A stretch of 63,693 bases of DNA, taken from the IMG/VR virus record IMGVR_UViG_3300018954_000002, positions 1 through 63,693 of that record; one strand, written 5' to 3'. Of the stretch, positions 9,244 through 60,924 are shown piece after piece. A model generated the notes under the pieces. The model was not told where the DNA came from. It saw only the letters and a program-made list of their open reading frames with translations, and ran no database searches. Positions within the stretch are counted from its first letter, which is position 1, and the number at the start of each line of letters is the position of its first letter. The position numbers were made by a program, and so were the translations under genes. The stretch comes from a virus.

Positions 9244-9559
9244 TCCTCTCCCATGCGCCGCGTGCGTCGAGCCACGCCTGAATCTTGGTGTCGTGCATCG
9301 GTATCCCGTAGACCGCTGTGTCGGTCGCCGCCGACGCCAGCGCGCACGCCGCCTCCCACGCCAGCATCTGCGCGTCGAACCGCTCGCGCTGCGCCGCGGT
9401 CAGCTCGTCGTACGTGCGAGTCCTGCGCGAAGACATCTCGTCCACGGGGACGACGAATCTCTGCGGGACTTCGAGGGAGACCCGCCCGCCGGTGTTGTTC
9501 CAGCCTTCCCGGACGGCCTTGCGCTGGAACGACTCGGGCTTCCACCTTCCGGGGCTCAT
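9230..9559 (-). CDS. Hypothetical protein (109 aa)
   Basis: Protein-like ORF. Confidence 0.55.
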   Translation of the reverse strand: MSPGRWKPESFQRKAVREGWNNTGGRVSLEVPQRFVVPVDEMSSRRTRTYDELTAAQRERFDAQMLAWEAACALASAATDTAVYGIPMHDTKIQAWLDARGAWERTRTR

Positions 9560-9562
9560 CCG

Positions 9563-9991
9563 TCACGCCTCCTGTTCGTTGCGGGTCGCGGTGGCCATCA
9601 GCCTGACGACCTGGCGCCGGGCGTTGTCCACGGCCACGATCGCCTGAGTCAGCGCGGCGTACACCTGCTCGGGCGTGCGGTGCTCGACGCGGGTCAGGTT
9701 GGTGACCACGCCGGCCGCGGCGGCGAGTTCGGTCCGGGCGCGGGCGGTCAGTGCTCGCCGGTCGTGCAGCGGCACGAGGACCCGCGGCGAGTGCGGGCCC
9801 CCGGCGAGCGGGCGAAGCGACGTCCGGTTGTACCGCTCGCCGTCGGAGGTCACGACCATGGTCTGCGTGATGTTGACGATGGTGACCTCGGGGCCGACCG
9901 CGTCGCGCCCGATCGGCGACTGGGACAACCTGAGGTCGACGGCGCGGTCGCCCTTCTGGGGCCACCGGCCCCCGGTCGCACCCTGGCTCAT
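9563..9991 (-). CDS. Hypothetical protein (142 aa)
   Basis: ATG at 9991 in an ATGA overlap with the ParB-like gene stop. The upstream part of the 508-aa track ORF is junk. Confidence 0.55.
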   Translation of the reverse strand: MSQGATGGRWPQKGDRAVDLRLSQSPIGRDAVGPEVTIVNITQTMVVTSDGERYNRTSLRPLAGGPHSPRVLVPLHDRRALTARARTELAAAAGVVTNLTRVEHRTPEQVYAALTQAIVAVDNARRQVVRLMATATRNEQEA

Positions 9992-10815
9992 TTCGGCTGC
10001 GGGAAGTTGTCGTTGGTCAGTTCGCCGCGGGCGATCTGGATGCGGTCCATCGACTCCCCCGCCCGGAATGCATTCCACGACCGGACGAACAGTGCCAGCT
10101 GCTCGGGCCGCGTGACCCGGTCTACCCGCACCCGGGCCATCCGGTTGCGCAGCGCCAGCACCGGCGAGCCGCCCGGGAGGTTGGCGCCGGAAACGTACTG
10201 GTCGAAGAACTGGTGTGTGAACTCTGCGTCGATCCGGTTGAACAGATAGTGGGCGACACCGGCTGGAGCCCCGACTCCGAGTCCGCGATTCTGGCAGTCC
10301 GTCGCCCGCTTGGACGCTGCGTCGTACCGCTCGGCCTCGGCCCGGTAGCGGTGCATGATCTCCGACGTGGTGGGGGCGAAGGTCCCACCGCCGCCCATGT
10401 AAAGCCCGACGTCCCACATCAGCGACCACCGCACGATCGCGGCCCCGCGCATCCGGTCGTGCGCGCCGGCGATCCGCAGCGCGTCGCCGGCGGACCGCGC
10501 CGCCCCGGAGTCGATGACCTGCATGGCCTCGGTGGGTACGTCGTAGGCGATGGTCATGTGCACGCCAGGGAACGCTGGGTCCTGCTCTCCGGCCAGAATC
10601 ACGGCGCGCATCCGGTTCTGCCCGTCGATCAGTGTGCCGGCGATGTCGACCTTGATCGTCTCGCCGGTGTTGGGGTTCCAGTTGCCGCCGAGCATGTCGC
10701 GGGCGAAGCGCGCGATGCGCGCCTCCTTGGGCCTGCGGTTGTTCTCGGCGTTGCGGCCAAGGATCTGTTTGGCTCTCTGCGGCGTGATCAGTTCGTGGTT
10801 GAAGGTGATGCTCAC
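9988..10815 (-). CDS. ParB N-terminal-domain (DGQ[N/H]R) protein
   Basis: ...KVDIAGTLIDGQNRMRAVILAG... is characteristic of the ParB/sulfiredoxin-like nuclease fold. Confidence 0.65.
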   Translation of the reverse strand: MSITFNHELITPQRAKQILGRNAENNRRPKEARIARFARDMLGGNWNPNTGETIKVDIAGTLIDGQNRMRAVILAGEQDPAFPGVHMTIAYDVPTEAMQVIDSGAARSAGDALRIAGAHDRMRGAAIVRWSLMWDVGLYMGGGGTFAPTTSEIMHRYRAEAERYDAASKRATDCQNRGLGVGAPAGVAHYLFNRIDAEFTHQFFDQYVSGANLPGGSPVLALRNRMARVRVDRVTRPEQLALFVRSWNAFRAGESMDRIQIARGELTNDNFPQPK

Positions 10816-10842
10816 GGGTCGGCTCGCTTTCGGGGAGTGCGG

Positions 10843-11097
10843 TCAAGACGGACGTGGACGAATGAGTCGAGCGGTGATGCGCGCGAGAAGGCCCGGCGCA
10901 CGGTGCGTGTGCTGGATGCCGAGTGCACGGCGCGCGCGGACGAGGTCGGCCACGTCCACGCCGAGCCGACCGGCCGAGGTGTTGAGGTCCCCGGTCAGGT
11001 CCGACGGTCGGATGACGACGATGGTCTCCGGGGCGGGTTGGTCGTTCAGGCGACGCGCGTCTCCGGCGTCGAGTTCGCGGATGTCCCACTGGCGCAT
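10843..11097 (-). CDS. Small HTH DNA-binding protein (84 aa)
   Basis: ATG at 11097 with a GAGGAG RBS. Helix-turn-helix-like SAGRLGVDVADLVRARRALGI. Confidence 0.5.
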   Translation of the reverse strand: MRQWDIRELDAGDARRLNDQPAPETIVVIRPSDLTGDLNTSAGRLGVDVADLVRARRALGIQHTHRAPGLLARITARLIRPRPS

Positions 11098-11108
11098 GGC
11101 GCGTCTCC

Positions 11109-11420
11109 TCACTGCGCGGTCACAGTTTCGCGGGCGTAGGCGCCGACCACCGCGCCCAGGGCGTCGGAGAGGGCGTGCGCCGGGATGAGCGCGGCGCGTG
11201 CCTTGGCGGCGCCGCGGATGGCCTTACTACGGGCGACCTGGAACTCCCAGCCGTTGCCCCAGCGCTCGCGGGCACCGTCGGTGAAGGTGACGACCCGCTC
11301 GGCGTACGGGGTGAGCTTCTCGACCTTGGCGACCTGCCGGAAGGCGTGGGTGTTGCTGGAGCGGATGACCATGCCCGGCTTGAGTTGGGCGGTGGTGCGA
11401 ATCTTGGTGCGCATCTGCAC
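11109..11420 (-). CDS. Hypothetical protein (103 aa)
   Basis: First gene downstream of promoter P1. GGGGAG RBS. Confidence 0.6.
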   Translation of the reverse strand: MQMRTKIRTTAQLKPGMVIRSSNTHAFRQVAKVEKLTPYAERVVTFTDGARERWGNGWEFQVARSKAIRGAAKARAALIPAHALSDALGAVVGAYARETVTAQ

Positions 11421-11449
11421 TCCCCGTGCTTCGTCTGACTGGTACGCCT

Positions 11450-11479
11450 AGTCTATATCCATGTATGGATAAGTGTCAA
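11450..11479 (-). promoter_or_regulatory. Promoter-operator cassette P1
   Basis: On the minus strand: AACTCTTGACAC, -35 TTGACA (11479-11474), 18 nt, -10 TAGACT (11455-11450). The spacer is filled by the palindrome TATCCA-N4-TGGATA (11456-11471). Confidence 0.75.
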
Positions 11480-11519
11480 GAGTTGCGGCGAGCCGCGGCG
11501 GGCATCTCGTGGCCGCAGG

Positions 11520-11831
11520 TCACTCGTCCTCCTCGGCCGACGTGTTGCGTACGACGTCTTCGATCAAGTCCATCAGGTCGAGTCCGTGCGCTGCGGCGAT
11601 GGCCGGGAGCATGGGGTCGATGTGGACCATCTTGTCGTCGATGCGGATCCCCCCGCTGTAAACGCGGATCAACTTCTTGCGCCCGGTGAGCCACCGGGAG
11701 ACGGTGACGTCGGACGGACGGCTGCCCGTCAGCTCCTCGACCCGGTCCGCGATGGCAGCACCGCTTAGGGTTTGGTCCTTTCTCGCGGCACGCAGTTTCT
11801 CGGCGAGTCGATCGGCTGACGGGTTCGCCAT
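11520..11831 (-). CDS. XRE/Cro-CI-type HTH transcriptional regulator (103 aa)
   Basis: From the ATG at 11831: LAEKLRAARKDQTLSGAAIADRVEELTGSRPSDVTVSRWLTGRK. Confidence 0.65.
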   Translation of the reverse strand: MANPSADRLAEKLRAARKDQTLSGAAIADRVEELTGSRPSDVTVSRWLTGRKKLIRVYSGGIRIDDKMVHIDPMLPAIAAAHGLDLMDLIEDVVRNTSAEEDE

Positions 11832-11976
11832 GTCGGGTTCCACCCCCTCTCCTTCCTGTCGTGGCCAGCCCGGTCGGGTTGACCTTTGTGCCCTCGGCCC
11901 GGCTCGAACGGGCTGCAACCCTGGAATCCCGATGCGCGACGCTTATGCGTCCCATCTCCTGGCGGGGGCGGGTGGT

Positions 11977-12372
11977 TCAGTCGCGAGGGGCCAGTTTCGT
12001 CACGCCGAGGACTCGGCTGGCGTGCAGGGCTGCCGCGCCGTGGCTGTCGCCCTGGCCGTGTCGACGTGCGATCAGGTGCAGCAGGGCTTCGTCCACCCGC
12101 TCGAACCGTAGGTGGTCGCCCTCGCCGCCGTGCACCGTGGCGAAGTTCAGAGTGGCGATCGAGCCGCGCTCGTAGCGGATCACCTCAACGACGTACGAGC
12201 CGGTCACGTCGAGTTCCGCGTCGGGCTCGATGTCGTCGAACAGGCTGACCACGTGGCCGATCCGGTAGCGGTCGCCGAGGCGCAGGATGGTGGCGAGTGC
12301 CTGGTTGCGCTGGAAGATCCGGTGCTGCCGCTCGTAGGCGGCGTCTCGCTCGATCTCCTGAAGGCGGTTCAT
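11977..12372 (-). CDS. Hypothetical protein (131 aa)
   Basis: AGAGGA RBS. Protein-like composition. Confidence 0.6.
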   Translation of the reverse strand: MNRLQEIERDAAYERQHRIFQRNQALATILRLGDRYRIGHVVSLFDDIEPDAELDVTGSYVVEVIRYERGSIATLNFATVHGGEGDHLRFERVDEALLHLIARRHGQGDSHGAAALHASRVLGVTKLAPRD

Positions 12373-12756: not shown

Positions 12757-12786
12757 AGTCTATATCCATGCGTGGATAAGTGTCAA
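12757..12786 (-). promoter_or_regulatory. Promoter-operator cassette P2
   Basis: -35 TTGACA (12786-12781), 18 nt, -10 TAGACT (12762-12757). Palindrome TATCCA-TGCG-TGGATA at 12763-12778. Confidence 0.75.
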
Positions 12787-12820
12787 GGGTTCCGAGGGAG
12801 GGAGATTGCGCCAACGCGAA

Positions 12821-14718: not shown

Positions 14719-14748
14719 ACGCTATATCCACACGTGGATAAGTGTCAA
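14719..14748 (-). promoter_or_regulatory. Promoter-operator cassette P3
   Basis: -35 TTGACA (14748-14743), 18 nt, -10 TAGCGT (14724-14719). Palindrome TATCCA-CACG-TGGATA at 14725-14740. Confidence 0.7.
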
Positions 14749-15008
14749 GAGTTCTGCGCCACGGAGTTTCCCGGCAGTCCCGCGATCCTGTATGCGTACG
14801 CCTGCACGCTGTCGACGTACACCCGCCGGTGCCCACGGAGCACTCGCCCGCGAACGTCCTCCGTCACCCGGTGCGCCCGGGTCCACGCGAACTCCAGCTC
14901 TCCCAGCGAACAGAGCGCGCGAATTTCGCGAAGCGAAACACCGAGCGTTTTCGCAGCCTGTCCCGTGGTCATCGTCTCGCGGTCGCCCCGCGTGGCTTCG
15001 CTTGTCAT
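14745..15008 (-). CDS. MerR/excisionase-type HTH DNA-binding protein
   Basis: MTTGQAAKTLGVSLREIRALCSLGEL. The start is ambiguous (ATG at 15008 or 14972). The stop lies inside the P3 -35 box. Confidence 0.6.
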   Translation of the reverse strand: MTSEATRGDRETMTTGQAAKTLGVSLREIRALCSLGELEFAWTRAHRVTEDVRGRVLRGHRRVYVDSVQAYAYRIAGLPGNSVAQNS

Positions 15009-15556
15009 GTGGTCAAAGTAGCAAGACGAACGAAAGTCTGCCATGCTGCGAACCATGACCCCGCTGACTTCGCTTCGTTCGCTTCGTTCGCTCCCGTTCG
15101 CTCTGGCTTCGCTGTTCGTCGTCGTGAGCGTCATCGCTGCGTTCGCATACGCGATCAACGCATGGCAGGTCTACGGCTTCGCTGCGAACGTGTGGCAGCT
15201 GCCGGCGGTCCTGTGCGTCTTCGCCGCGCTCGTCGCCGACGCTCTTTCGCTCGCCGGACTCTTCACCACGTACATCCTTCGCAGAGCGAAGCTGCACGTC
15301 CGCGCGTACGCATGGTTCGTCTTCCTCAGCATGACTTCGCTGTCCATCCTCGCGGCCGAGTCGTTCGCGAAGTGGCGTCAGCTCCCGCAAAGTTCGCGGG
15401 ATCTCTTCGCCAACGAACCCTCGCTCATCGAAGCGGACAGCGTCGCTGGCGGGGTTCTCGACGACGCGAACGTGGCCGCTGCCGTGATCGCCCCTGCGCT
15501 CGCTCTCGCGGTGCACCTGCTCATCATCTGCGTTCGCCACGCGGTTCCGGCTTCGC
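14887..15556. repeat. TTCGC/GCGAA-dense island 1
   Basis: About 29 copies counted by eye in about 670 bp. Background elsewhere is about 2-3 per kb. Includes the 9-bp tandem TTCGCTTCG at 15070-15095. Confidence 0.7.
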
Positions 15557-16047
15557 GGGACGGCGCGACCCCGGCGGGGCACCCTGACTTCATCGCCTGC
15601 CCGCTCTGCGGCGGCGACGCCATCTCGCCCACGGTGCTCGCGGAGCACATGGCCCGGCGGCACCCGGCTCCCTCCGTGGCCCAAGGGCCTCCCCGCGCCG
15701 TGCGTCCCGTCCGGACCGAGCAGGCACCGGAGCCCGACCGGCCTGTTCCGGTCGTGCGCGAGCAGGCCGAAAAGGTCCAGGTCATGCCCCCTGCGCCCCG
15801 GCGCGGAGGACGCCGGGGCGGAATCAGCGCAGTGAACAAGGCGAACGCTGTTGCCCGGGTCATCGCCAAGGAGATGACCGCAGCCGAGGTGGCCGCCCTG
15901 CTGGACTGCTCGACGCGCGCCGTCGAACAGTGGGTTAAGGCGTACCGCGAGCAGCAGGCGGGCCAGCCCCTCGCCGCGATGCGCACGTTGACCGACGGAT
16001 CCGGGCAGGTCAACGGCCACAAGCCGGAAGAGACGGTGAGCCTGTGA
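15043..16047 (+). CDS. DUF2637-like polytopic membrane protein with a C-terminal HTH
   Basis: Four hydrophobic helices in the N-terminal half, a CPLCGG Cys/His (zinc-finger-like) motif, and C-terminal MTAAEVAALLDCSTRAVEQWV. This gene type usually sits next to FtsK-like genes in actinomycete conjugative elements. Confidence 0.6.
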   Translation: MLRTMTPLTSLRSLRSLPFALASLFVVVSVIAAFAYAINAWQVYGFAANVWQLPAVLCVFAALVADALSLAGLFTTYILRRAKLHVRAYAWFVFLSMTSLSILAAESFAKWRQLPQSSRDLFANEPSLIEADSVAGGVLDDANVAAAVIAPALALAVHLLIICVRHAVPASRDGATPAGHPDFIACPLCGGDAISPTVLAEHMARRHPAPSVAQGPPRAVRPVRTEQAPEPDRPVPVVREQAEKVQVMPPAPRRGGRRGGISAVNKANAVARVIAKEMTAAEVAALLDCSTRAVEQWVKAYREQQAGQPLAAMRTLTDGSGQVNGHKPEETVSL

Positions 16048-16087
16048 GCACCCGCGAGGGCCCACGGATGCGCACGGTGAGTGATAT

Positions 16088-16287
16088 TGCAAGTGCAAGT
16101 GCCGCCGCGCCCTTTTCAGACGCGCCGGTACCTAGGGGGGGAGATGCAAAGGATCTTGCAAGCCGTCCGGTATGGACCGATTGCAAGGCGCGGTGCAAGT
16201 CCGGTTTGATCAGGTTGCAAGCCCCGCTGCAAGCCCTGCAAGTCACGCAGCGTAGGGATCCCGGACCTGCAAACGATCTACTGCAAG
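16088..16287 (+). repeat. Array of 11 TGCAAG/TGCAAA hexamers upstream of the traB-like gene
   Basis: Copies start at 16088, 16094, 16145, 16157, 16182, 16194, 16216, 16228, 16237, 16268 and 16282. Three pairs are 12 bp apart. Confidence 0.85.
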
Positions 16288-16303
16288 CGAGGGGGGCAGG
16301 GCC

Positions 16304-18505
16304 ATGGCGGTGAAGGCAGACGAGCGCCGCGAGCGCGAGCAGGGCGGCCACACCCGGCCGACCAGCAAGCGGCACGTCCCGTTCCTCGCGTCCTTCCTGG
16401 TCGCGTTCGTCGTCATCCCGGTCACGTTCGCGATCTCCCACGCCATCTACCTCTGGGACCCCGCGACCGGCCTCATGCTCGCGCACGGATGGTTCATCAC
16501 CGGCTGCACCGTCGCGTTGGTCGCCGTCGGGATCGGCCTGTTCCACGCCAAGCGCACCACGTTCCTGATCAAACACGTCGCGATCACCGTGTTCCTGTTC
16601 GGCGCGGCCGGCGACGTCATCACCCTCGCCGGATTCCGGCATCGCTTCCTCGACGTCGTGTGGTTCTTCGCGACCCTGATCGTGTGGCTGTCGTGGATGC
16701 TCTACCGCGTCGACGCCTTCCGTGCGAAGGCGACCGGCGAATCGAGCGACTCGTGGGGCGACGTCATCGGCCTTGCGAAGTCGCGGCCGAAGAAGGTTCG
16801 CACGACGCCCAGCGAAGTCATCATCGACGTCGAGCACGGCCCCGGCGAAACGATCGGCGACGTCCGCAACGCAGCGAAGGAACTGGAGGACAAGGCCGGT
16901 GCCATCGTCGGGCGAACGACCGTCATCGCGGGCGAACGTGGCGGGTCTTCGCAGATTCGCTTGACGATGGCGGACCCCTTCGACGAGTGGCGAAAGTTCC
17001 CCGGCCTTTCGCACCCCGGCGGTTCGTTCGCTCTGCCGTTTCGCACCGCGTACTACTCAACCGGCGACGACCAGTGGTTCGGTTTCGCTCGCGGCACCCT
17101 CGCTTCGCCGCTGACGAACTTCGTCGCGCCGCAGGCGACCTTCGTCGGCATCGTCGGCACCACCGGCGCAGGCAAGTCCGGCGAACAGAACAACATCGCC
17201 GCCGAGGGGCTTTCGCGGTGCGACGCGATCCTCTGCTGGGTCGACGCGGAGAAGCTGTTCCAGAACGCCGGGTGGTGCCTGGACATGCTCGGCATGGCGG
17301 CCCCGGACCGGCCGAAGGCGGCACGGCTTTCGCGGGCGCTCAAAAAGCTGGCCGAGCACCGGGTGCAGTTGTTCGGTCAGATGTCGCTCGACGCCGCCCT
17401 CGACCCCGACAACCCCGACGCCATCGGTGGCCGGGAGTGGACGCCGGAGGTCGCCCGGGAGACCGGGGAAGCCGCCGTGCTCGTCATCATGGACGAGGCC
17501 GACACGTTCCTGCAGAAAGGCGAATGGGACTGGCTCGGCAAGCGGGGCCGCTCCCTCGGGATCTTCCTGTGCCCGTCCGTGCCCCGGGCGTCGACACAAG
17601 AGGTGCCGGCGGCCTTCCGCGGCAGCATCGCCGCGTGGAAGACGTTCGCGATCGGCGACAAGTACAGCGGCGAGTTCACCCTGTCGCAGTCGACCCGCGA
17701 CGCCGGGGCGGACCCGGAGTCGCTGCGCATGCCGGGCGGCCACTGGTTCGACCTCGCGCCCGGCGTCGACCCCCGGCTGTGGCCGCTGCTCTGCCGATCG
17801 TTCTGGTCGGACGGCCGGATGCTGCGACAGATGGTCCTCGCCGCCCGCCAGCGGTTCACGCCGATGGACTTCACCGACGCGGCGAAGGCCGCGATGGGGC
17901 AGGACTACGAGGTGTGCACCCCCGCCGCGGTGATGGCTGTACGCGCGCCCGAGGTGCGCAACGAAGGCGACGGGGCCGCCGCGCCGGCGGACCCGCAGAC
18001 GACGCAGGAGACTCCCGGACCCGCCGGACCTGCCGACAGCAGAGGAGGAGATGACGTGGACACCGAGCCCGTCGAACGCACAGAAGAGGGCGCCCGCGCC
18101 CCGGAGGGGGATGATGGCGTCGTCGCCACTCTCTCTCACCCGGGCCTGCCGGGCGCCGCCGAGTCCGACCCCCGCGCGCCGATCGAGCGCGGCACCACGG
18201 GAGTCGAGGTGCCGGAGGACAAGCCGCCCGCCCCATCGAGAGAACAGGAAGACGCCGACCTCGACCACGCCCTGGTGAAGCTGTACCAGGACGACGTGTC
18301 CGAGTTCACCCCGGAGGACGTCGCCGATCGGCAGCAGTACGCGATGCAGCCGTGGACGATGTCGCGCCGGCTCGGTGCCCTCGCGGCGTCCGAGACGATC
18401 AAACCGCCCGGCCTCAAGGTCGAGCGACTCCGCGCCGGGCGGTACCTGTTGGTCCGCGTCGGCCCGTCCCCCCGCCCCACCAACGTCCCGCGAAAGGGTG
18501 AGTAG
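16304..18505 (+). CDS. traB: FtsK/SpoIIIE-family DNA translocase, TraB-like
   Basis: N-terminal TM helices, Walker A GTTGAGKS, Walker B VLVIMDEAD, an acidic linker and a C-terminal winged-helix-like tail. 733 aa. Confidence 0.85.
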   Translation: MAVKADERREREQGGHTRPTSKRHVPFLASFLVAFVVIPVTFAISHAIYLWDPATGLMLAHGWFITGCTVALVAVGIGLFHAKRTTFLIKHVAITVFLFGAAGDVITLAGFRHRFLDVVWFFATLIVWLSWMLYRVDAFRAKATGESSDSWGDVIGLAKSRPKKVRTTPSEVIIDVEHGPGETIGDVRNAAKELEDKAGAIVGRTTVIAGERGGSSQIRLTMADPFDEWRKFPGLSHPGGSFALPFRTAYYSTGDDQWFGFARGTLASPLTNFVAPQATFVGIVGTTGAGKSGEQNNIAAEGLSRCDAILCWVDAEKLFQNAGWCLDMLGMAAPDRPKAARLSRALKKLAEHRVQLFGQMSLDAALDPDNPDAIGGREWTPEVARETGEAAVLVIMDEADTFLQKGEWDWLGKRGRSLGIFLCPSVPRASTQEVPAAFRGSIAAWKTFAIGDKYSGEFTLSQSTRDAGADPESLRMPGGHWFDLAPGVDPRLWPLLCRSFWSDGRMLRQMVLAARQRFTPMDFTDAAKAAMGQDYEVCTPAAVMAVRAPEVRNEGDGAAAPADPQTTQETPGPAGPADSRGGDDVDTEPVERTEEGARAPEGDDGVVATLSHPGLPGAAESDPRAPIERGTTGVEVPEDKPPAPSREQEDADLDHALVKLYQDDVSEFTPEDVADRQQYAMQPWTMSRRLGALAASETIKPPGLKVERLRAGRYLLVRVGPSPRPTNVPRKGE
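16724..17333. repeat. TTCGC/GCGAA-dense island 2 (inside traB)
   Basis: About 20 copies by eye. GCGAA dominates from 16724 to 16932 (8 of 9). TTCGC dominates from 16948 to 17329 (9 of 11). Confidence 0.65.
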
Positions 18506-18508
18506 CCG

Positions 18509-18889
18509 ATGCCGCAGATGCCCCCGGCCAATCAGTCGACCAAGTACAACGAAGAGATCGAGGCGCTCGGCGTCGCCGTCCGCGCTGCGGCGATCGCCGG
18601 CCACGACTTCCTGTCCCCACTCGCCGCGTCGCTGTCTCGGCGCCTGGCGAAGGGTCTGCGTTCCGAGGGGCTGGACGGCGGCAACTTCGCCTCTCGGTTC
18701 CTGCGCGGCGGGGACGCCGCCCGGACCGCGATGTGGATCACCGAGCCGATGCGGGCCGCCGCGGCGGACCTCTACAACTGCTCCGTGAACATGACCACCT
18801 TCGTCCGGCGGTTCCGGGTCGGCTACGTCGACGCGATCATCCAGGCACGGAACACGGCGAAGGACGACGACATCGTCGTCGTCCGCTAA
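18509..18889 (+). CDS. Hypothetical protein (126 aa)
   Basis: Starts 4 nt after the traB stop. Protein-like composition. Confidence 0.6.
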   Translation: MPQMPPANQSTKYNEEIEALGVAVRAAAIAGHDFLSPLAASLSRRLAKGLRSEGLDGGNFASRFLRGGDAARTAMWITEPMRAAAADLYNCSVNMTTFVRRFRVGYVDAIIQARNTAKDDDIVVVR

Positions 18890-18915
18890 CGGCAGACGAG
18901 GCAGGAGGACCGGCG

Positions 18916-19311
18916 GTGTTCAACAGTCAGGCGCGGACCGAGCGCAGGAAGCGGGACCGCGAGCAACAGCGGTGGGCGGCGAACAAGCGCGTCGGCCACG
19001 ACCTCGCGTACTGGATCCTGTACGGGGGGCAGATGCTGGCCGCCGTTGGCCTCGCCCTGCTGGCCTTCGCAGCGGTATGGGTGTGGGTCTCCGTCGACCG
19101 CATCCTCATCGCGGAGACGCTCGGCGCCGTGGGGATCCTGATCCTCGCCGTGTATGCCGCGTGGTGGGCCCGGCGAGCGACCCCGCAGTCCCGCGTACTC
19201 GCTCGCGCCGCAGGCATGGCCAACAACGCGCTGGTCTGGCATCTCGTCGGAGCCGCCGGCCTCCTGCTCGTCGTGGCCGGCGTGCTGCTCTGGCAGCAGG
19301 TCGCGGCGTGA
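18916..19311 (+). CDS. Spd-like polytopic membrane protein (131 aa)
   Basis: GGAGGA RBS, 6 nt, GTG at 18916. Three or four hydrophobic helices. Confidence 0.6.
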   Translation: MFNSQARTERRKRDREQQRWAANKRVGHDLAYWILYGGQMLAAVGLALLAFAAVWVWVSVDRILIAETLGAVGILILAVYAAWWARRATPQSRVLARAAGMANNALVWHLVGAAGLLLVVAGVLLWQQVAA

Positions 19312-19544
19312 GCGGCGAGCGCCGCCGGGTGGAGGTCGTGGTCGTCCGCGGCCTTGCCCGGCTGCTCGCCGCCGGGACGGCACTGACCGCCCTCGGCGCG
19401 CTGGCCTTGGTCGGCTGCATGTGGTCGTGGGCCCGGGACGCGGGTGCCGACCCGTCCGTGCTGTGGATGCTCGGCGGGATCGCCGCCGTCCTGTTCGTCG
19501 GAGGGATGTTCTCCGTGGTGGCGTTCGAGTGGGCGCGGGCATGA
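19308..19544 (+). CDS. Small membrane protein, 2 TM helices (78 aa)
   Basis: GTGA overlap at 19308. Confidence 0.55.
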   Translation: MSGERRRVEVVVVRGLARLLAAGTALTALGALALVGCMWSWARDAGADPSVLWMLGGIAAVLFVGGMFSVVAFEWARA

Positions 19545-19990
19545 TCGCCGGGTCGCTCGTCCTGGCCGCGATCGCCCTGCTCGTGCTCGCGCTCCGGCTC
19601 GCCCGCCGCCGCGAACCGTCGCCGGGTCGGCAGGTGACGATCCAGCGCCGCGCCACACCGGCACCTCCGAAGCGACAGCCGCCGCGGCGCGACATCCCGC
19701 ACGCGCTCTACGTCTGCCCGCACCAGTTCGGCGGCGTCGTCTACGTCGGCATCTCGCACGAGCCGGAAGCGCGGCACGAGCGACGGATGGCTGAGTTCAG
19801 GCGCGGCAACCCCCGGGTCGCGTGGGTCGCCGACTCCACCGGCCGGATGCAGATCATTCGGTGGTACCCGGATCGGTCCGCCGCGCTTGCGGCCGAGGAC
19901 GCCCTGATCAAACGTCTCGCCCTGGAGGGACACCCGGTCGCCAACGTCCAGGGCAACCCGCTACGAAGGAGGACTCGTCGTGCTGCGTGA
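19541..19990 (+). CDS. Membrane-anchored GIY-YIG-like nuclease domain protein (149 aa)
   Basis: ATGA overlap. N-terminal TM helix MIAGSLVLAAIALLVLAL, then ALYVCPHQFGGVVYVGISHEPEARHERR...AAEDALIKRL...N. Confidence 0.5.
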   Translation: MIAGSLVLAAIALLVLALRLARRREPSPGRQVTIQRRATPAPPKRQPPRRDIPHALYVCPHQFGGVVYVGISHEPEARHERRMAEFRRGNPRVAWVADSTGRMQIIRWYPDRSAALAAEDALIKRLALEGHPVANVQGNPLRRRTRRAA

Positions 19991-20312
19991 CGTCCCGCAG
20001 GTGCAGTGCCACCACCGCGTCGAGGACGGCGGGAGGGCGCTGGTCGCCGTCCTCGTGTCGGCCGGCGTGCCGCTGGAGACCGCGTACATCCTGAAATGCG
20101 ACGACGTGCACCCGTTGGTCGAGCTGTACGCCCGCTCCCGGTGCCTGGCCAAGGGGGAGCGGACGCTGGTCGCCGAGCTCCCCGACCCGCCGACGCCGGA
20201 GCGCCCCGAGCCCCGATCCGTCGGGGCATCGGCGGTCACCGCCGCGCTGTGGGCGACCCTGGCCCTCGTCTTCCTCTGGCTGGCGGGCGCGCTCACGGCG
20301 GCGGTCCTGTAG
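19980..20312 (+). CDS. Hypothetical protein with a C-terminal TM helix (110 aa)
   Basis: Protein-like ORF ending in AVTAALWATLALVFLWLAGALTAAVL. Confidence 0.5.
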   Translation: MLRDVPQVQCHHRVEDGGRALVAVLVSAGVPLETAYILKCDDVHPLVELYARSRCLAKGERTLVAELPDPPTPERPEPRSVGASAVTAALWATLALVFLWLAGALTAAVL

Positions 20313-20521
20313 TGACCGTCTACGACTACGATCCGGACGAGTACGGGTGGCGTGTGGCGAATCCGCGCCTTGACTACGACCCCGACGTCGGTCAGCACTC
20401 GGCCGGCGAGGACCGGTACGCCGAGTGGCTCGCGTGGCACGACGCGCACTGCACCGACGACCACAGCACTGAGTCGTACCTGCGCGCGATCGTCACCATC
20501 GACCCGCATCCGTTCCTGTAG
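20312..20521 (+). CDS. Hypothetical protein (69 aa)
   Basis: GTG overlapping the previous stop by 1 nt. TVYDYDPDEYGWRV... Confidence 0.5.
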   Translation: MTVYDYDPDEYGWRVANPRLDYDPDVGQHSAGEDRYAEWLAWHDAHCTDDHSTESYLRAIVTIDPHPFL

Positions 20522-20532
20522 AGAGGACCCGC

Positions 20533-21435
20533 ATGGCCTCGTCCATCTGGCAGTGGGGCCGGCGCCCCGACCCGACGCCCGCCGACCGGTCCGCCGCGCT
20601 CGGCGGGCCCAACCCGAACACCGCATGGCCCACGGCGCTCGACATCAGTCAAGACGAGATGCAGCGCGGATGGCTTCCCCGAGAGGATCGACCCATGACC
20701 GAACCCCAGCCCCAACCTCCCGTCGACGACTGGCCCGAGGAGAGTCAGGCGGCGCCCGGCGACCGGCCGCCGCCGCAGCACGCCGCCGCCCCGGAGACGG
20801 AGCGCTTCGACCGCCGCCCGGACTGCCCTCACTGCCTCGGAACGGGGAAGACGTTGACCGCCAACGACAAGCTGCGCCAGTCCCTCGCGCTGTTCCCCGT
20901 CGAAGACGCGGCGGCGATGGACGGCATCGTCGCCGGCTTCTACGCCCGGCTCGTCGCCCGGGATCAGACCGGCGGCCCGGGGGGCGGGCCGAAGCCGCTC
21001 GGCGAGCAGCTCGCGCCGCTGTTCCCCCACGACCTCACCACCGGCCCCGCGCCGAACAGCCGGGGGAACCCGCAGCGGGACATGCTGCTGCACGCGCTCG
21101 TCGCCATGATCGAGGAGTACGACCCGGACAACCCGACGTCGCAGGGCATGCAGGTCCGCGAGCAGGAGTTGCTGCGCGCCGGGCGGTCGCACTCGTCGTT
21201 TCGTCGTCCGGACGGCTCGGAGCGCCCGCCCTCGGCTGCGGAGTACGCGGAGGTGTTCGACGTGCTCGCGGGCCTGCTGCACGAGGCGTTCGGCGACAAG
21301 TGGTTGCCGGAGTACGACGAGCTGTGGGCCGAGGCGTACGACGACGCGGTGGTCGTGATGCGCTACGCCGGCCGTGAGCACCAGAGGGAGACCGGCGGTC
21401 GCCTGGTGGGCCGGATGCCGAGGCAGGCGCGATGA
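20533..21435 (+). CDS. Globin-fold domain protein with an N-terminal extension (CPHC knuckle)
   Basis: The C-terminal ~200 aa follow a bacterial globin pattern: ...GIVAGFYARLVA...LFPHDL...PQRDMLLHALVAMI...GRSHSSF...EYAEVFDVLAGLLHEAFGDKW...LWAEAYDDAVVVM. Confidence 0.5.
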   Translation: MASSIWQWGRRPDPTPADRSAALGGPNPNTAWPTALDISQDEMQRGWLPREDRPMTEPQPQPPVDDWPEESQAAPGDRPPPQHAAAPETERFDRRPDCPHCLGTGKTLTANDKLRQSLALFPVEDAAAMDGIVAGFYARLVARDQTGGPGGGPKPLGEQLAPLFPHDLTTGPAPNSRGNPQRDMLLHALVAMIEEYDPDNPTSQGMQVREQELLRAGRSHSSFRRPDGSERPPSAAEYAEVFDVLAGLLHEAFGDKWLPEYDELWAEAYDDAVVVMRYAGREHQRETGGRLVGRMPRQAR

Positions 21436-21651: not shown

Positions 21652-21894
21652 ATGACGAACGTCATCGACCACCAGGACGCAGCCGGGATGGCAGGGGCTC
21701 CGCTCGGCGCCTTCATCGACGGCATTCGCGTCGGGACCGTGGCAGACCACAGCACGGACCCGTTCGGCGAGCACCTGGCCCGCCGCATGCGCGCCGCCCA
21801 CCAAGGCGCACACGTCGAGATCCTTCTGACCTGCCCCGGACACCCACACGTGGCCGCCGTCGACTGCCTCGACTGCGCGCCTGAGGACGAGTGA
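21652..21894 (+). CDS. Hypothetical protein (80 aa)
   Basis: Protein-like ORF. Confidence 0.6.
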   Translation: MTNVIDHQDAAGMAGAPLGAFIDGIRVGTVADHSTDPFGEHLARRMRAAHQGAHVEILLTCPGHPHVAAVDCLDCAPEDE

Positions 21895-21898
21895 GCAG

Positions 21899-22021
21899 GT
21901 GATCGCCCGCCTGCTCGCCGCGGCCGAAACCCTCGACCGCGTCATCTCCGACCTCCGCACGCTCGCATGGTGCGCAGCGTGCGCCGCCTACATCTGCGCA
22001 GTGGAAAGGACCCGCTCATGA
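21899..22021 (+). CDS. Small hypothetical protein (40 aa)
   Basis: GTG start. ATGA-type coupling to the next gene. IARLLAAAETLDRVISDLRTLAWCAACAAYICAV... Confidence 0.35.
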   Translation: MIARLLAAAETLDRVISDLRTLAWCAACAAYICAVERTRS

Positions 22022-22398
22022 CCCGAAACGCCGAACTCGCCTATCAGGTGCTCGACCACATCCTCGCCCACCCCGAGATGCACGACCAGGGCGATTGGTT
22101 CCGCAGGACCGAGTGCGGCACCGTCGCCTGCTTCGCCGGGTGGGCCACGCTGCTGTCCGGTCTCTCTTTCGCTCCCGGCTCGATCATTGTCGAGCACGCC
22201 CCCGATCATCTTCTGCGCCTGCGTGAGATGTCGGTCGGTCGGGCGGCGGCGCGGCTTCTCGGCCTGCCCGATCCGCACTGGACGGCCACCGAGGACGGCA
22301 ATGAGGCCGACGACCTGTTCCACCCCGGCAACGACCGGGAGGATCTGGCCGAGCGCGTGGAGAAGTATTTCGGCCCCCGCCCGGTGGCGACGTCATGA
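22018..22398 (+). CDS. Hypothetical protein (126 aa)
   Basis: GGAAAGGA RBS before the ATG at 22018. Confidence 0.6.
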   Translation: MTRNAELAYQVLDHILAHPEMHDQGDWFRRTECGTVACFAGWATLLSGLSFAPGSIIVEHAPDHLLRLREMSVGRAAARLLGLPDPHWTATEDGNEADDLFHPGNDREDLAERVEKYFGPRPVATS

Positions 22399-22643
22399 CC
22401 TTCCTGCACCGCGTCGGCTTCGCCGTCGCCCAAGTCGCCCGCCGGACGTGGGACTTCTACGCCGGGCCGGCGCTGACGCCCGACGCGCTTCCGCCGTACC
22501 CGCTGCGCTGCCAGCACTGTCCCGAGCCGATCGAGTTCGTCGGATGGTGCGGCGGCTCGATGTTCGCCGATCCGGCCGGGCGCATCACCTGCGACGCCGA
22601 GCAGCACATCCCGCACCGTCCCATGCCGAGCATCCTCGGCTGA
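22395..22643 (+). CDS. Hypothetical Cys-containing protein (82 aa)
   Basis: ATGA overlap. Confidence 0.55.
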   Translation: MTFLHRVGFAVAQVARRTWDFYAGPALTPDALPPYPLRCQHCPEPIEFVGWCGGSMFADPAGRITCDAEQHIPHRPMPSILG

Positions 22644-22656
22644 AAGAGAGACGACC

Positions 22657-23073
22657 ATGACCGAGAAGAGACCCATCCTGCCCGGCATCACCGGCCCCAT
22701 CTGGCGCGACCGCGACGGCGACCCGTGGGAGGAACTGCCCGATGGGCTCCTGCGTAACGTCGCGGACGACGGCGACCCCCACCCCGGGGCTGCCTATTCT
22801 CGCGGGTACGTAAAGAGCGTCTGGGGGTCACTCACCCGCGAGACGCCCCTCACGTGGGACCTCCCGCCCGAGCCGGGCCCCGAGGTGCGGGCGGTACGCA
22901 CCCAGGACGGCCAGATTTGGTGCCGCTCCGAAGGCCACCACGTAACCGGAGGTTGGCAGGCGATCCACAACGACCGAGGGGCTCGCCCTCGGTGGCATAC
23001 CTTGCTCTGCGGCATGGGCCAGCTCACCGACGCCACCGCCGAGGTCGAGGCGCAGGACGGAGCGACGGCATGA
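22657..23073 (+). CDS. Hypothetical protein (138 aa)
   Basis: Protein-like ORF. Confidence 0.6.
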   Translation: MTEKRPILPGITGPIWRDRDGDPWEELPDGLLRNVADDGDPHPGAAYSRGYVKSVWGSLTRETPLTWDLPPEPGPEVRAVRTQDGQIWCRSEGHHVTGGWQAIHNDRGARPRWHTLLCGMGQLTDATAEVEAQDGATA

Positions 23074-23339
23074 CCCGGCCGACCATCGTCGAGTGCCACG
23101 ACCGGTACCGCTCGACCTTCGACCACGCCGGCGTCGACATCCGAGGGACCCGACTCGGCATCGACTGCCACCTCGACGAAAGGGAGTGGCGTCTGCTGCG
23201 TGCCGACATCAAGGCGGGCAAGTACGACGACCTCTACCCGGACGAGCGGGTGCAGTGCACTGACCCTGAGTGCGCGAACGCCAACCCGCAGCCCCTCGCC
23301 CACGCCGAGCGGCCCCCGAGACGGTTCCCCGATGCCTGA
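23070..23339 (+). CDS. Hypothetical protein (89 aa)
   Basis: ATGA overlap at 23070. Confidence 0.55.
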   Translation: MTRPTIVECHDRYRSTFDHAGVDIRGTRLGIDCHLDEREWRLLRADIKAGKYDDLYPDERVQCTDPECANANPQPLAHAERPPRRFPDA

Positions 23340-23562
23340 CGACAAGGGACGTCTGTTCGCGTCCGACATCGCCGAGCAACTCGGCATCCAGCCGTCCGAC
23401 TGGCGTGCCCGAGTCTCCCGCGGGCACGCGCCCGGACCGATCGACCACGCCGTGCACGGCGGCGCGGTGCGTGCCGTATGGGACCCGGAGACGTTCTCCG
23501 AGTACCTGCGCAAGCGCGACGAGCGCCTCGCCTCGCGCGCCACCACCACGGAAGGAGATTGA
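23332..23562 (+). CDS. Small HTH-like DNA-binding protein (76 aa)
   Basis: LFASDIAEQLGIQPSDWRARVSRG. Confidence 0.5.
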   Translation: MPDDKGRLFASDIAEQLGIQPSDWRARVSRGHAPGPIDHAVHGGAVRAVWDPETFSEYLRKRDERLASRATTTEGD

Positions 23563-23565
23563 CCC

Positions 23566-24063
23566 GTGCCTATCTCTGATCCCTCGTCCGTGATTACGGA
23601 CGATCTGCTGAACACCTTCCGCGACGCCTGGATGAACTCCATTCAGTCCGACCCGCGTACCGACGACCCGGAGCGAGTCGCCGACCGGGCCGGGCTGGAA
23701 GCGGTAGCCGCCGAGATGGCGGGACCGTGGAGGACCGCGCAGGCGATCGACAGCGAGGTCATCGTCGAGGCGACGCGGCTGCTGAACTACGCACTCCACC
23801 TGCGGATGCACGGTGAGCGAGCGCCCGGCGGGAACGAGACGTGGGCCCAGTTTGACCGCGAGTGCGAGCACTTCCTGAGGGCTATCCGTCCGAATTCTGC
23901 GCCCGCGTGTGGCTACCGGCCCGCCCACCTGGCGCACGAGTTCGTGAATGTCGCCAACGACGAGCGCGACTTCGACGAGGAGGCGTGGTGCTACGGCGTG
24001 CCCGAGCCGGCCGCCGCCGTTACCGCGCCCGACGTGACTGAGGGCGGTGCGGGCCGTGGCTGA
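23566..24063 (+). CDS. Hypothetical protein (165 aa)
   Basis: Protein-like ORF. Confidence 0.6.
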   Translation: MPISDPSSVITDDLLNTFRDAWMNSIQSDPRTDDPERVADRAGLEAVAAEMAGPWRTAQAIDSEVIVEATRLLNYALHLRMHGERAPGGNETWAQFDRECEHFLRAIRPNSAPACGYRPAHLAHEFVNVANDERDFDEEAWCYGVPEPAAAVTAPDVTEGGAGRG

Positions 24064-24487
24064 CCTGCCCCCGACTCAGTACCTCGTGATGGAGGTGCTC
24101 GCTGCCCGTGCTCGGACCGGCGAGTCGCTGTGGACCTTCCCGTCCAACCTGGCGGTGCCGCTGCGCGCTCTCGAGGAGCGCGGCCTGATCTCGGTGATGC
24201 ACGGCATCGTCCAGAACACGGTTCGGGCCAGGCTCACCGACGCCGGCCGCGCCGAGTGCCTCAAGGGTGACTACGTGACCCCCCTCGCCCGGAAGGCGCT
24301 CGAAGCGGTCGAGGAGGGCATGCGCGCCGCGTCGTCGCTTCTCGCCGCGGCCGGGACCCCGCAGGCGGCCGATCAAGCCCTAGGTGTTGCGTACGCCATC
24401 CCGAAGGTCAAGGCGTACGTGCGCGGCGCCTTCCTGTTCGGTACGGATAGCGCGCCAAGCCTCTCGTCGGAGGTGGACCGTGGCTGA
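24047..24487 (+). CDS. Winged-helix (MarR-like) protein
   Basis: PTQYLVMEVLAARARTGESLWTF...LRALEERGLISV...RLTDAGRAE. The start could be either GTG, at 24047 or 24056. Confidence 0.5.
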   Translation: MRAVADLPPTQYLVMEVLAARARTGESLWTFPSNLAVPLRALEERGLISVMHGIVQNTVRARLTDAGRAECLKGDYVTPLARKALEAVEEGMRAASSLLAAAGTPQAADQALGVAYAIPKVKAYVRGAFLFGTDSAPSLSSEVDRG

Positions 24488-24719
24488 ACTGGTGCTCTAC
24501 GAGCTTGGCCGGACCCGCATCGCCAGCCCGGACGGCTGCGCTGTGTGTGGCCACCCCGAGCGCGGCCACCACCGGTGGTATGTCGAGCCGCACATCCAGC
24601 CGGGCGTACCGGTCACCTACGTGCGGCCGAACGACGCTACCCGCCTGGCCCGGATGAAGCTACGCCGTGCTGAGCGGAAAGACGCGGCGAGCGATACCGG
24701 TTCAAAAACGACCCCTTGA
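24480..24719 (+). CDS. Hypothetical protein (79 aa)
   Basis: The GTG overlaps the end of the previous gene. CAVCGHPERGHH motif. Confidence 0.5.
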   Translation: MAELVLYELGRTRIASPDGCAVCGHPERGHHRWYVEPHIQPGVPVTYVRPNDATRLARMKLRRAERKDAASDTGSKTTP

Positions 24720-24769
24720 CCGACCCGCACATCCTGAAAGCATCCCGCTCCCGAAAGGAACCCCACCCC

Positions 24770-25093
24770 ATGACCCGCATCTACCGCCGCAGCATCGCCG
24801 CTGGTATCGCCGTGGCCCTACTCCTCGCCGGACTCACCGGCTGCGCCAAACGCAGCATCGACCCCCGCAGCACCGGATCCGTCGAGGTCGAGGGCACCGA
24901 CGGGTCCCTGATGAAGTTCTGCGACGGAACCATCCTGATCTACTGGACGCCCGGCCGGAACAGCGGCGAAGAGGACGACTACGAGTTCATCGTCTACGAC
25001 GGCTGCACGCCGGACGGCCGGATCGTCAACGGCGACAACGCCGAGACCCGCCCGCCCACCGAGGATCTGAACCCGGAATCCGAGGACGACTAA
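24770..25093 (+). CDS. Lipoprotein (107 aa)
   Basis: GAAAGGAA RBS. Signal peptide and lipobox: MTRIYRRSIAAGIAVALLLAGLTGC. Confidence 0.7.
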   Translation: MTRIYRRSIAAGIAVALLLAGLTGCAKRSIDPRSTGSVEVEGTDGSLMKFCDGTILIYWTPGRNSGEEDDYEFIVYDGCTPDGRIVNGDNAETRPPTEDLNPESEDD

Positions 25094-48409: not shown

Positions 48410-48447
48410 CCCGTGCATAAGTGTCAAGAGTTATGCGGTATGGCGCG

Positions 48448-53801: not shown

Positions 53802-54146
53802 GCCCCTCGGAATGCCGCCGGGAAACCACTCGCGGGACGCCGGCCGCCGCGCGCTGGCACGTGCGCCGCGGGACTGATTGCACAACCGGTCGCACACCGG
53901 GCACGGATTCGGTGGCTCGCCGGGACCCATCGTGCCGTGCGCCGGGCGCAGGTTCGAGAGATCGTCCACACCCGGGATCAGTCGGCCCGCCACGTCGCGC
54001 GGCCACAGCCGGTGCGGGACGATGTGGTCCGCCGTCCGGGCGCCGTGGTGCCCGCAGATGCCGCAGATGTCGTTCGAGGCTAGTAGAAGGGCCCGATTCC
54101 GCCGGTACGGGCGGCTACCGGTGCCGGAGCGCCCCGATCCGGTCAC
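53799..54146 (-). CDS. HNH endonuclease (115 aa)
   Basis: GTGA overlap with the fibre gene stop. CGICGHHGARTADHIVPHRLWP...NLRPAHG...CPVCDRLCN. Confidence 0.7.
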   Translation of the reverse strand: MTGSGRSGTGSRPYRRNRALLLASNDICGICGHHGARTADHIVPHRLWPRDVAGRLIPGVDDLSNLRPAHGTMGPGEPPNPCPVCDRLCNQSRGARASARRPASREWFPGGIPRG

Positions 54147-60900: not shown

Positions 60901-60924
60901 GGGTCAAGACCTTCCGGGAGCCAA

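Follow-up and report, generated by a model that had tools for sequence, protein, structure and literature searches.

The stretch of viral DNA analyzed here (IMG/VR record IMGVR_UViG_3300018954_000002; its full 63,693 nucleotides are called the window below) carries, within a tailed-phage genome, genes for a TraB-like double-stranded DNA (dsDNA) translocase, a polytopic membrane protein with a helix-turn-helix (HTH) domain, and several small membrane proteins, together with two arrays of short repeats (Table 1). These genes lie in a plus-strand block that spans 15043 to ~25093, with minus-strand blocks on both sides. A preliminary description of this DNA had already recognized a plus-strand island running against the surrounding transcription, and the minus-strand flanks bear this out; however, the island ends near 25,093 and not at 20,312, and the gene for a soluble protein at 18509–18889 had been omitted from it. 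The plus-strand open reading frames (ORFs) of that description were all supported at their coordinates by a third-position GC (GC3) frame plot, and independent gene calls on three assemblies gave identical coordinates for the module genes (products of 334, 733, 126, 131, 78, 149, 110, 69, and 300 amino acids [aa]). Start and stop codons overlap by 4 to 11 nt at 19308–19311, 19541–19544, and 19980–19990, indicating translational coupling of the small genes. The order of divergent regulator, polytopic membrane protein, TraB, and small coupled membrane proteins parallels that of the Streptomyces conjugative plasmids pWTY27 and pFP3, in agreement with the plasmid-transfer gene grammar proposed earlier, whereas the DUF2637 and Spd labels attached to the accessory genes in that proposal are analogies that failed sequence tests. 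L-numbers below (L001–L008 and L099–L108) are labels of compared loci.

Table 1. Coordinates of the TraB-like module, its repeat arrays, and its divergent neighbor in the window (TM, transmembrane)
Feature	Position	Strand	Evidence
HTH_17 (MerR/excisionase-type) protein, 87 aa	14745..15008	(-)	Pfam HTH_17, E = 2.9e-5; called identically in the separate assemblies
Repeat array 1, TTCGCT/AGCGAA hexamers	14905..15250		Clustering of genome copies
ORF A, polytopic membrane protein with C-terminal HTH	15043..16047	(+)	GC3 frame, TM prediction, Pfam HTH_23
Repeat array 2, TGCAAG	16088..16287		Located between ORF A and TraB, in a 256-bp spacer
TraB-like FtsK/SpoIIIE-family dsDNA translocase, 733 aa	16304..18505	(+)	NCBIfam plasmid_TraB, AlphaFold, Foldseek
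Soluble 126-aa protein, beginning 3 nt past the TraB stop	18509..18889	(+)	GC3 frame; 0 predicted TM helices
131-aa small membrane protein, three predicted TM helices	18916..19311	(+)	GC3 frame, TM prediction; homologues in L004, L005, L006
78-aa small membrane protein, two predicted TM helices	19308..19544	(+)	Start overlaps preceding stop; homologues in L004, L006
149-aa protein, N-terminal TM helix and GIY-YIG-like domain	19541..19990	(+)	Subthreshold Pfam match, invariant residues
110-aa protein with C-terminal TM anchor	19980..20312	(+)	GC3 frame, TM prediction; weak homologues in L004, L005
Two co-oriented soluble-protein genes (69 aa and 300 aa), same conserved block	20312..21435	(+)	GC3 frame, gene calls

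The 733-aa product is central to any reading of the block. Its only NCBIfam match was plasmid_TraB (NF041214; 155.6 bits, E = 1.8e-45), with residues 22 to 701 aligning to model positions 4 to 623 of 639. NF041214 is an equivalog model with a curated cutoff of 800 bits; judged by sequence, the protein is therefore homologous to TraB over its full length yet is not a TraB equivalog. Scores against this model form a series in which pCQ3 TraB reached 850 bits, the pFP3 "FtsK/SpoIIIE" protein 428, homologues on viral contigs 256 to 171 (L007, 256; L004, 204), and the window protein 156, so that by this measure the latter is the divergent end of a continuum. Pfam FtsK_SpoIIIE (PF01580) did not match the window protein at E ≤ 0.1 or the L006, L007, and L008 homologues at E ≤ 1; the pFP3 control protein matched it at 1.2e-9. 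In addition, there was no match to the 733-aa protein from Pfam FtsK_4TM or FtsK_gamma, from a phmmer search of PDB sequences, or from a tblastn search of 50,697 phage records. Membership in the FtsK superfamily rests on the fold.

Walker A (GTTGAGKS) and Walker B (VIMDEAD) motifs are present, and residues G285, T287, G290, K291, S292, G293, D397, E398, and D400 are invariant in 38 homologues with 28 to 68% identity. An AlphaFold model from this 38-sequence alignment (predicted local distance difference test [pLDDT] score of 80.3) has four TM helices (22–143), an alpha/beta motor (~150–545), a disordered linker (547–637), and a winged helix (646–718). The N-terminal hydrophobic helices predicted from sequence (22–52, 56–83, 87–111, and 115–136) correspond to model helices at 25–143, and the C-terminal domain, modeled as an H-H-H-beta-beta winged helix at a pLDDT of 85 to 94, aligns with the C-termini of the pCQ3, pFP3, and pWTY27 TraB proteins. 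When the model was compared to the PDB with Foldseek, FtsK motor domains ranked at the top (6t8b, E = 1.3e-15; 6t8b, 2ius, and 2iut, E = 1e-13 to 1e-15; ~400 aligned columns; target TM-score, 0.63), followed by the conjugation coupling protein TcpA, EssC/EccC, and HerA, and packaging terminases were absent from these matches. The viral protein I4AZH4 (853 aa) in BFVD was a structural match over the full length. The preliminary description had called this product a TraB-type FtsK/SpoIIIE ATPase with N-terminal TM helices, Walker motifs, and a winged-helix tail, and had named grouping with packaging or unrelated AAA+ proteins as the outcome that would tell against it; motifs, model, family search, and structure search all agree with its assignment, and no such grouping was seen. 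The protein is a member of the TraB/FtsK group rather than a packaging ATPase or an unrelated AAA+ protein.

Two arrays of short direct repeats, newly described here, resemble the clt/TraB-recognition repeats of conjugative plasmids. The cis-acting transfer locus of TraB systems consists of direct repeats of ~8 bp near the gene. According to PMC4447253 and PMC3583192, clt is defined by direct repeats that are recognized by the TraB winged helix through its helix alpha-3, and the repeat scan used here recovered the experimentally defined clt of pWTY27, directly downstream of its TraB. Array 1 contains 10 of the 30 genome copies of TTCGCT/AGCGAA within 346 bp (binomial P = 6e-16), including five phased direct copies at 15069, 15078, 15087, 15097, and 15108 (9- to 11-bp spacing), and extends over the region of the divergent promoter as well as the start of ORF A at its 5′ end. 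In an unbiased densest-window scan of 10 related loci, all 10 had their highest 6-mer repeat density at this 5′ end, the chance of which would be ~1e-14 if the loci were independent. The motif at this position differs between lineages and is GCGAA[GC] in the window, L003, L004, L005, L099, L100, and L106, [AG]CGCAA in L001 and L002, and TGCGCA in L107 and L108. The only spot in the window denser than array 1 is the spacer between ORF A and TraB, where array 2 brings together nine direct copies and one inverted copy of TGCAAG (10 of 17 genome copies in 200 bp; binomial P = 2e-21). TGCAAG occurs five times in the corresponding spacer of L001, whose TraB is the nearest (67% identity), and the spacers of L002, L099, L100, and L106 contain TGCAA variants; the TraB proteins of these loci have the winged-helix motif [ST]RRLxAL in common. 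In the plasmid-like relatives L103, L007, and L008, arrays directly follow the TraB stop codon.

Array 2 is our best candidate for a clt or TraB-recognition site. Array 1 is more probably the target of another DNA-binding domain, that of ORF A or of the HTH_17 protein, and is a candidate operator or cis-acting transfer site. No covariation was seen between the TraB recognition helix and the array 1 motif; the motif does track the HTH of ORF A across loci, in too few independent lineages for this to count as evidence. As a separate observation, a conserved GTGCTA..T.CGC...CATGTCTGCCGACA sequence stands at the start codon of the ORF A homologue in L001, L002, L003, L099, L100, L106, and L108 and resembles a -10 element with a leaderless ATG behind it; in the window, the arrangement is different.

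ORF A comprises three to four predicted TM helices, a conserved core (I[SQ]AW..[YF]GFA), a proline-rich linker, and a C-terminal HTH, of which residues 265 to 303 match Pfam HTH_23 (E = 2.2e-6). Homologues lie directly upstream of TraB in L001–L003, L005, L099, L106, and L108. The preliminary description was right in seeing a polytopic membrane protein with a C-terminal HTH at this position, but its comparison to DUF2637 did not survive three tests: Pfam DUF2637 (PF10935) did not match ORF A, 0 of 10 database homologues carried the domain, and profile-profile alignment (hhalign) of ORF A with the pFP3 DUF2637 protein and the L004 counterpart was negative (probability, 4%). We therefore reject DUF2637 membership, but the likeness in position and topology holds. 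In L004, the syntenic counterpart gives a partial DUF2637 match (E = 6e-9), and its C-terminal HTH is a homologue of the one in ORF A. This L004 gene (8874–9971) also has weak GIY-YIG and excinuclease Cho matches at residues 170 to 245, and a nuclease-like domain may have been fused to the membrane protein in that lineage.

Downstream of traB, the coupled genes described previously as encoding small membrane proteins are indeed of that kind, and an Spd-type arrangement is present beside traB, with three-TM, two-TM, one-TM, and C-terminally anchored products. The proposed likeness to Spd proteins was not borne out in sequence. These proteins had no Pfam, NCBIfam, or PHROG family match, and tblastn gave no match to the TraB-flanking regions of pFP3, pCQ3, and an Amycolatopsis plasmid, which is a weak test because most Spd proteins have no family model. 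One of them, the 149-aa protein, has a further feature that had gone unremarked. It matches Pfam GIY-YIG with E = 1e-3 and 19.8 bits, under the 22.6-bit cutoff, and Y57, Y68, G70, R78, and E119 do not vary among seven syntenic homologues; these positions correspond to the Tyr, Tyr-x-Gly, Arg, and Glu residues of GIY-YIG nucleases. The homologue in L100 has a weak precomputed GIY-YIG match. A single-sequence structure model gave a beta-beta-alpha-beta-alpha order at low confidence. Among the soluble products, the 126-aa protein is kept directly 3′ of TraB in L001, L002, L005, L006, and L100, and the 300-aa protein is kept in L004 and L006; the 69-aa and 300-aa proteins had zero family matches in Pfam and NCBIfam. 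Homologues of the divergent HTH_17 gene are placed likewise, pointing away from the module, in L004, L005, L099, and L106. By analogy of position with the GntR-type TraR/KorA of plasmids, its product is a candidate regulator.

The genome in which the module resides is complete. Bases 1 to 127 of the window are an exact direct repeat of 63567 to 63693, giving a unit of 63,566 bp, and the same element was found in three separate assemblies (ENA, 63,707 bp; Logan, 63,596 bp; and an 8.2-kb fragment); the terminal repeat and the repeated independent assembly together indicate a complete circular or terminally redundant replicon. The G+C content is ~70%, and the host is a high-GC organism, probably a mycelial actinomycete. 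Two scans found no relative in 185,579 species-representative genomes, so no host was assigned to the element, and megablast with the TraB module and the structural region found no near-identical GenBank phage among the 50,697 records. GC3-based gene calling yielded 97 genes. PHROG and Pfam identified a minus-strand virion set of large terminase, portal, prohead protease, major capsid protein, tail tube, tape-measure-like protein, and lysin, which confirms that a full terminase, portal, capsid, and tail set shares this replicon with the translocase, as well as a beta clamp, an ERF recombinase, an exonuclease, a RuvC-like resolvase, a methyltransferase, and a primase/helicase-like protein. The Pfam scan of all 97 predicted proteins reported 23 families, with no integrase (as previously noted), recombinase, ParA/ParB, or plasmid Rep family among them. 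The motif KGGxGK[ST] was not found in the window, nor were tRNA genes. The primase/helicase-like gene at 61094–62500 matches phrog_28894 (E = 6e-80), and immediately 3′ of it, at 60924–61095, are all seven genome copies of AGGGGTGGA, which form two palindromic sets (GGGGTGGACA..TGTCCACCCC) on either side of an AT-rich stretch. This cluster is probably a replication origin or (master) operator. We had considered the GGGGTGGACA cluster at 60.9 kb as a clt and dropped it, because its primase/helicase-like neighbor and the AT-rich stretch that it brackets make an origin or operator more probable.

The module recurs beyond the window. A collection of 5.8 billion proteins contained 46 TraB homologues, all metagenomic and several on contigs of 62 to 79 kb, and nine IMG/VR contigs carry a homologue, three of them together with the capsid or terminase family of the window. 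The synteny survey proposed in the preliminary description showed that the module is kept in at least 12 related metagenomic contigs. The block of divergent HTH_17, ORF A, TraB, and small genes was seen in L001–L006, L099, L100, and L106–L108, at ~30 to 67% TraB identity, with a recurrent layout: minus-strand early genes, often ending in a small HTH_17 gene, then the plus-strand ORF A homologue, TraB, and small genes, and then minus-strand tail genes. In these relatives, it always has the early recombination genes on one side and the tail genes on the other. In the comparison of the window with L004, flanking genes are 62 to 70% identical but TraB only 33%, indicating that the module has been swapped between related phages. 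In L108, a gene of the AcrVA2-like anti-CRISPR family (9068–10309) closes the same plus-strand block.

The union of virion formation and conjugation is not a new concept, having been present in the Streptomyces plasmid literature since 2010 to 2015; pZL12/phiZL12 is said to have been described in 2010 by Zhong et al. (J Bacteriol 192:3747) and pFP4 reportedly in 2012 by Chen et al. (Plasmid 68:170). The window shares with pFP3, pCQ3, pZL12, and pFP4 a complete tailed-phage structural module, a TraB-type gene, and neighboring membrane-protein genes on one replicon. Of these, pFP3 (NC_023067.1, from Streptomyces sp. F2) has the closest cultured capsid (52% identity; portal, 45%; terminase, 37%) and a TraB homologue (24% identity, E = 5e-17) encoded in a block that runs opposite to the structural genes, and pCQ3 (NC_013449.1) joins traA and traB with capsid and tail genes. 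However, pFP3 has a tyrosine integrase, ParA, DnaB, GntR, WhiB, and a recognizable DUF2637 protein, none of which was detected in the window. The window is also about twice the size of pFP3, has a far more divergent TraB (156 versus 428 bits; pCQ3, 850), and contains the HTH-fused membrane protein, the GIY-YIG-like protein, and the arrays upstream of traB. It is by this combination, of an extremely divergent TraB and these three features with no recognizable integration, partition, or Kor functions, that the window differs from known plasmid-phages. According to a 2014 paper citing Chen et al. [quoted passage not shown]

Comparison with other TraB and FtsK systems gave a similar mixture of likeness and divergence. 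With plasmid and AICE (actinomycete integrative and conjugative element) TraB systems (pSVH1, pIJ101 Tra/KilA, and pWTY27), the module has in common full-length homology, the order of membrane domain, FtsK-like motor, and C-terminal winged helix, short direct repeats beside the gene, adjoining small coupled membrane-protein genes, and a divergent regulator; it differs in that identity is ~25%, the score is sub-equivalog, a GntR Kor partner is absent, the accessory proteins are unrelated in sequence, and the carrier is a phage and not a small plasmid. FtsK/SpoIIIE share the motor fold, the four TM helices at the N terminus, the long disordered linker, and the winged helix at the C terminus, which in those proteins reads short oriented DNA motifs, whereas the candidate recognition repeats of the window are clustered at one locus and not spread along the genome. 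ORF A resembles SpdB2/DUF2637 proteins in being polytopic and directly upstream of TraB, as DUF2637 is in pWTY27 and pFP3, yet ORF A and its 10 homologues lack a DUF2637 signal, and ORF A carries HTH_23; DNA binding by SpdB2 has been reported to be nonspecific. The literature further notes FtsK-like genes as common in actinophages, including several Streptomyces phages. Phages Geonosis, Mandalore, and Naboo (Streptomyces), Bacillus SPO1-like phages, and mycobacteriophages do encode FtsK-family ATPases, but pFP3 TraB found only partial, motor-domain matches (41 to 55% of the query) in the 50,697 phage records.

Other cultured elements offered less. The published plasmid-phage PhiNon1 (Nonomuraea; 59 kb, 70% GC) was considered as the best cultured relative and set aside, as it has only head genes in common with the window. 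A prophage at ~10.44 Mb of the Nonomuraea gerenzanensis chromosome (L104/L105), probably PhiNon1, has in common with the window the capsid (49%), portal (46%), and protease, and no TraB match was found in this PhiNon1-like prophage within ~55 kb on the expected side of the capsid gene or ~20 kb on the other. In the 14-kb conjugative Streptomyces plasmid pWTY27 itself (NC_013667.2; L101), a lone "phage major capsid protein" is annotated next to traB (10642–12102), a further sign of TraB plasmid-phage traffic.

Taken together, homology and architecture, the conservation of the module, its cis arrays, and precedent in the literature best support a role in transfer, and we hold with moderate confidence that the region from 14.7 to 21.4 kb is a TraB-type dsDNA transfer module, forms a stable part of a tailed-phage genome, and serves virion-independent transfer or spread of the phage replicon. 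In such a scheme, the TraB-like protein would be a membrane-embedded hexameric pump of the FtsK type, the C-terminal winged helix of which would dock on a short direct-repeat array in cis, the TGCAAG array upstream of traB being the best candidate. ATP hydrolysis would then move the unprocessed double-stranded replicon through the envelope or septal cross-walls into neighboring hyphal compartments or contacting mycelium. The co-transcribed ORF A, with its own HTH, and the three-TM, two-TM, and anchored proteins may have an accessory, channel-forming, or tethering role, as Spd proteins have for plasmids, and the divergent HTH_17 protein and TTCGCT array would provide regulation. The element would have two routes of spread, by virions and by cell contact, as has been reported for pZL12 and pFP4. 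Homology, fold, domain architecture, the complete phage context, the kept synteny, and the arrays were observed directly in the data; from them we infer hexamer and pore formation, the pairing of protein and array, transfer itself, and the mycelial life style of the host.

Several points weigh against this interpretation. Plasmid replication and partition genes were not recognized among the 97 proteins, so that the plasmid-like carrier state presupposed by conjugation is not evident, and the element may be strictly lytic; the iteron-like array that adjoins the primase/helicase-like gene would fit lytic replication just as well. The TraB score lies far under the curated cutoff (156 versus 800 bits) and Pfam FtsK_SpoIIIE is silent, and functional divergence is therefore possible. 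In addition, the accessory proteins have no detectable kinship to Spd proteins or DUF2637, and a GntR-type Kor/TraR repressor was not found among the predicted proteins. The TraB recognition helix (SRRL) is nearly constant whereas the array 1 motif is variable, which makes array 1 more probably the site of another DNA-binding protein; the arrays extend over a promoter region and might simply be operators. Moreover, 268 IMG/VR contigs have a related capsid and only 9 have TraB, indicating that the pump is a feature of a sub-lineage and no general need of the capsid lineage. Finally, the functional reading is drawn from homology and context, the element being a metagenomic assembly of an uncultured soil phage.

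A pump with this fold need not serve transfer. If the element were a non-integrated prophage or carrier replicon, the pump, targeted by the membrane proteins, might clear or move replicon copies across closing sporulation or vegetative septa and so secure inheritance in spores or compartments without partition genes, in the manner of chromosomal FtsK/SpoIIIE. The Streptomyces SmeA-SffA pair is the comparison for a pump of this kind, and in the window a membrane protein gene precedes the pump gene. The lack of integrase and ParA/ParB among the predicted proteins, the FtsK motor fold, and the resemblance of the oriented direct-repeat array to KOPS/SRS-type guide sequences all accord with segregation. 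We nonetheless judge such a role unlikely, since the sole family match, over the full length and including the TraB-type C-terminus, is to plasmid TraB, and none of the models for chromosomal FtsK, SpoIIIE, or SffA gave a score. Like clt, the repeats gather at a single locus; they are not dispersed over the genome and strand polarized, as KOPS are, and lysogen-like maintenance of the element would have to be assumed. Alternatively, the pump may operate during lytic growth, drawing phage DNA into adjoining compartments once a single injection has taken place or moving host DNA, and with the membrane-anchored GIY-YIG nuclease raise the burst per infected hypha, with no transfer between mycelia. 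The location of the module in a gene block without lysogeny functions and the conserved GIY-YIG-like protein within the operon are consistent with such an aid to infection, as is the suggestion of Thoma et al. that Spd homologues on actinophages help phage DNA to spread. Because this proposal differs from virion-independent transfer in range only (within rather than between mycelia), and because the role of the nuclease is putative, its Pfam score lying under the cutoff, we find it distinctly doubtful.

The module is composed of a single membrane ATPase, a single nuclease-like protein, and a few small membrane proteins, which would also suit a system that bars the DNA entry of rival phages or plasmids (superinfection or conjugation exclusion); superinfection exclusion had been raised in the preliminary description. 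However, none of the nine module proteins matched any of the 5,027 PADLOC defense models, the divergent HTH_17 protein alone giving a weak match (mad1, E = 1e-4), and exclusion would leave unexplained a complete TraB architecture with a DNA-recognition domain and an adjacent repeat array; we consider it very unlikely. That the genes are a passenger, a decaying plasmid remnant recombined into the phage with no present function, is suggested by the mosaic relation of TraB to its flanks in L004. Decay is nevertheless highly improbable given that all ORFs are intact with a strong coding GC3 signal, that catalytic residues are invariant among the 38 divergent homologues, and that synteny has been held across so many contigs.

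Within the preferred interpretation of virion-independent transfer, a more specific and more daring version can be put forward, which we regard as possible but rather doubtful: that a non-integrating, possibly strictly lytic ~63-kb phage lineage of mycelial actinomycetes keeps a TraB pump of its own as a standing element of the infection cycle, together with a recognition-repeat array that belongs to the pump, ORF A as a DNA-binding tether in the membrane, and a GIY-YIG nuclease anchored to the membrane, so that the genome spreads between compartments or hyphae without virions. If true, this would be movement of a bacterial virus analogous to that conferred by the movement proteins of plant viruses, and not just a plasmid carrying a prophage. 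More generally, if the module works as proposed, tailed phages that infect filamentous bacteria can spread by a second route, which depends on contact, and soil phage ecology would have to reckon with spread independent of free virions or receptors. Surveys of phage-plasmids by relaxase or type IV secretion genes would overlook conjugation by a single TraB protein. With respect to how TraB moves circular dsDNA, new candidates for DNA processing and tethering come from the conserved membrane-anchored GIY-YIG-like protein and from the membrane protein that bears an HTH, and the two arrays, with natural motif variation over about a dozen relatives, provide directly testable pairs of protein and DNA site.

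Some additional features of the window deserve mention. The minus-strand gene at 637–1815 encodes a DNA polymerase III beta sliding clamp with all three Pfam domains; no recognizable DNA polymerase gene was found in the window. A 1,100-aa protein encoded at 54143–57445 on the minus strand has a PhoD-like phosphatase/phosphodiesterase domain, and its 28% identical pFP3 counterpart lies beside the pFP3 tail genes; it is possibly a tail-associated hydrolase of the cell wall (teichoic acid?). The whole-proteome Pfam scan reported a second HTH_17 (excisionase/MerR-type) protein (E = 1.4e-10), which is not among the nine individually scanned genes at 21652–25093. Lastly, a conserved element of ~35 bp occurs at 11454–11490, 12761–12797, and 14723–14757, with a partial copy at 48417. 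Read on the minus strand, it consists of TTGACA-N17-TATAGA with the palindrome ATCCA-N4-TGGAT between the hexamers, and the three copies look like leftward early promoters with one common operator.

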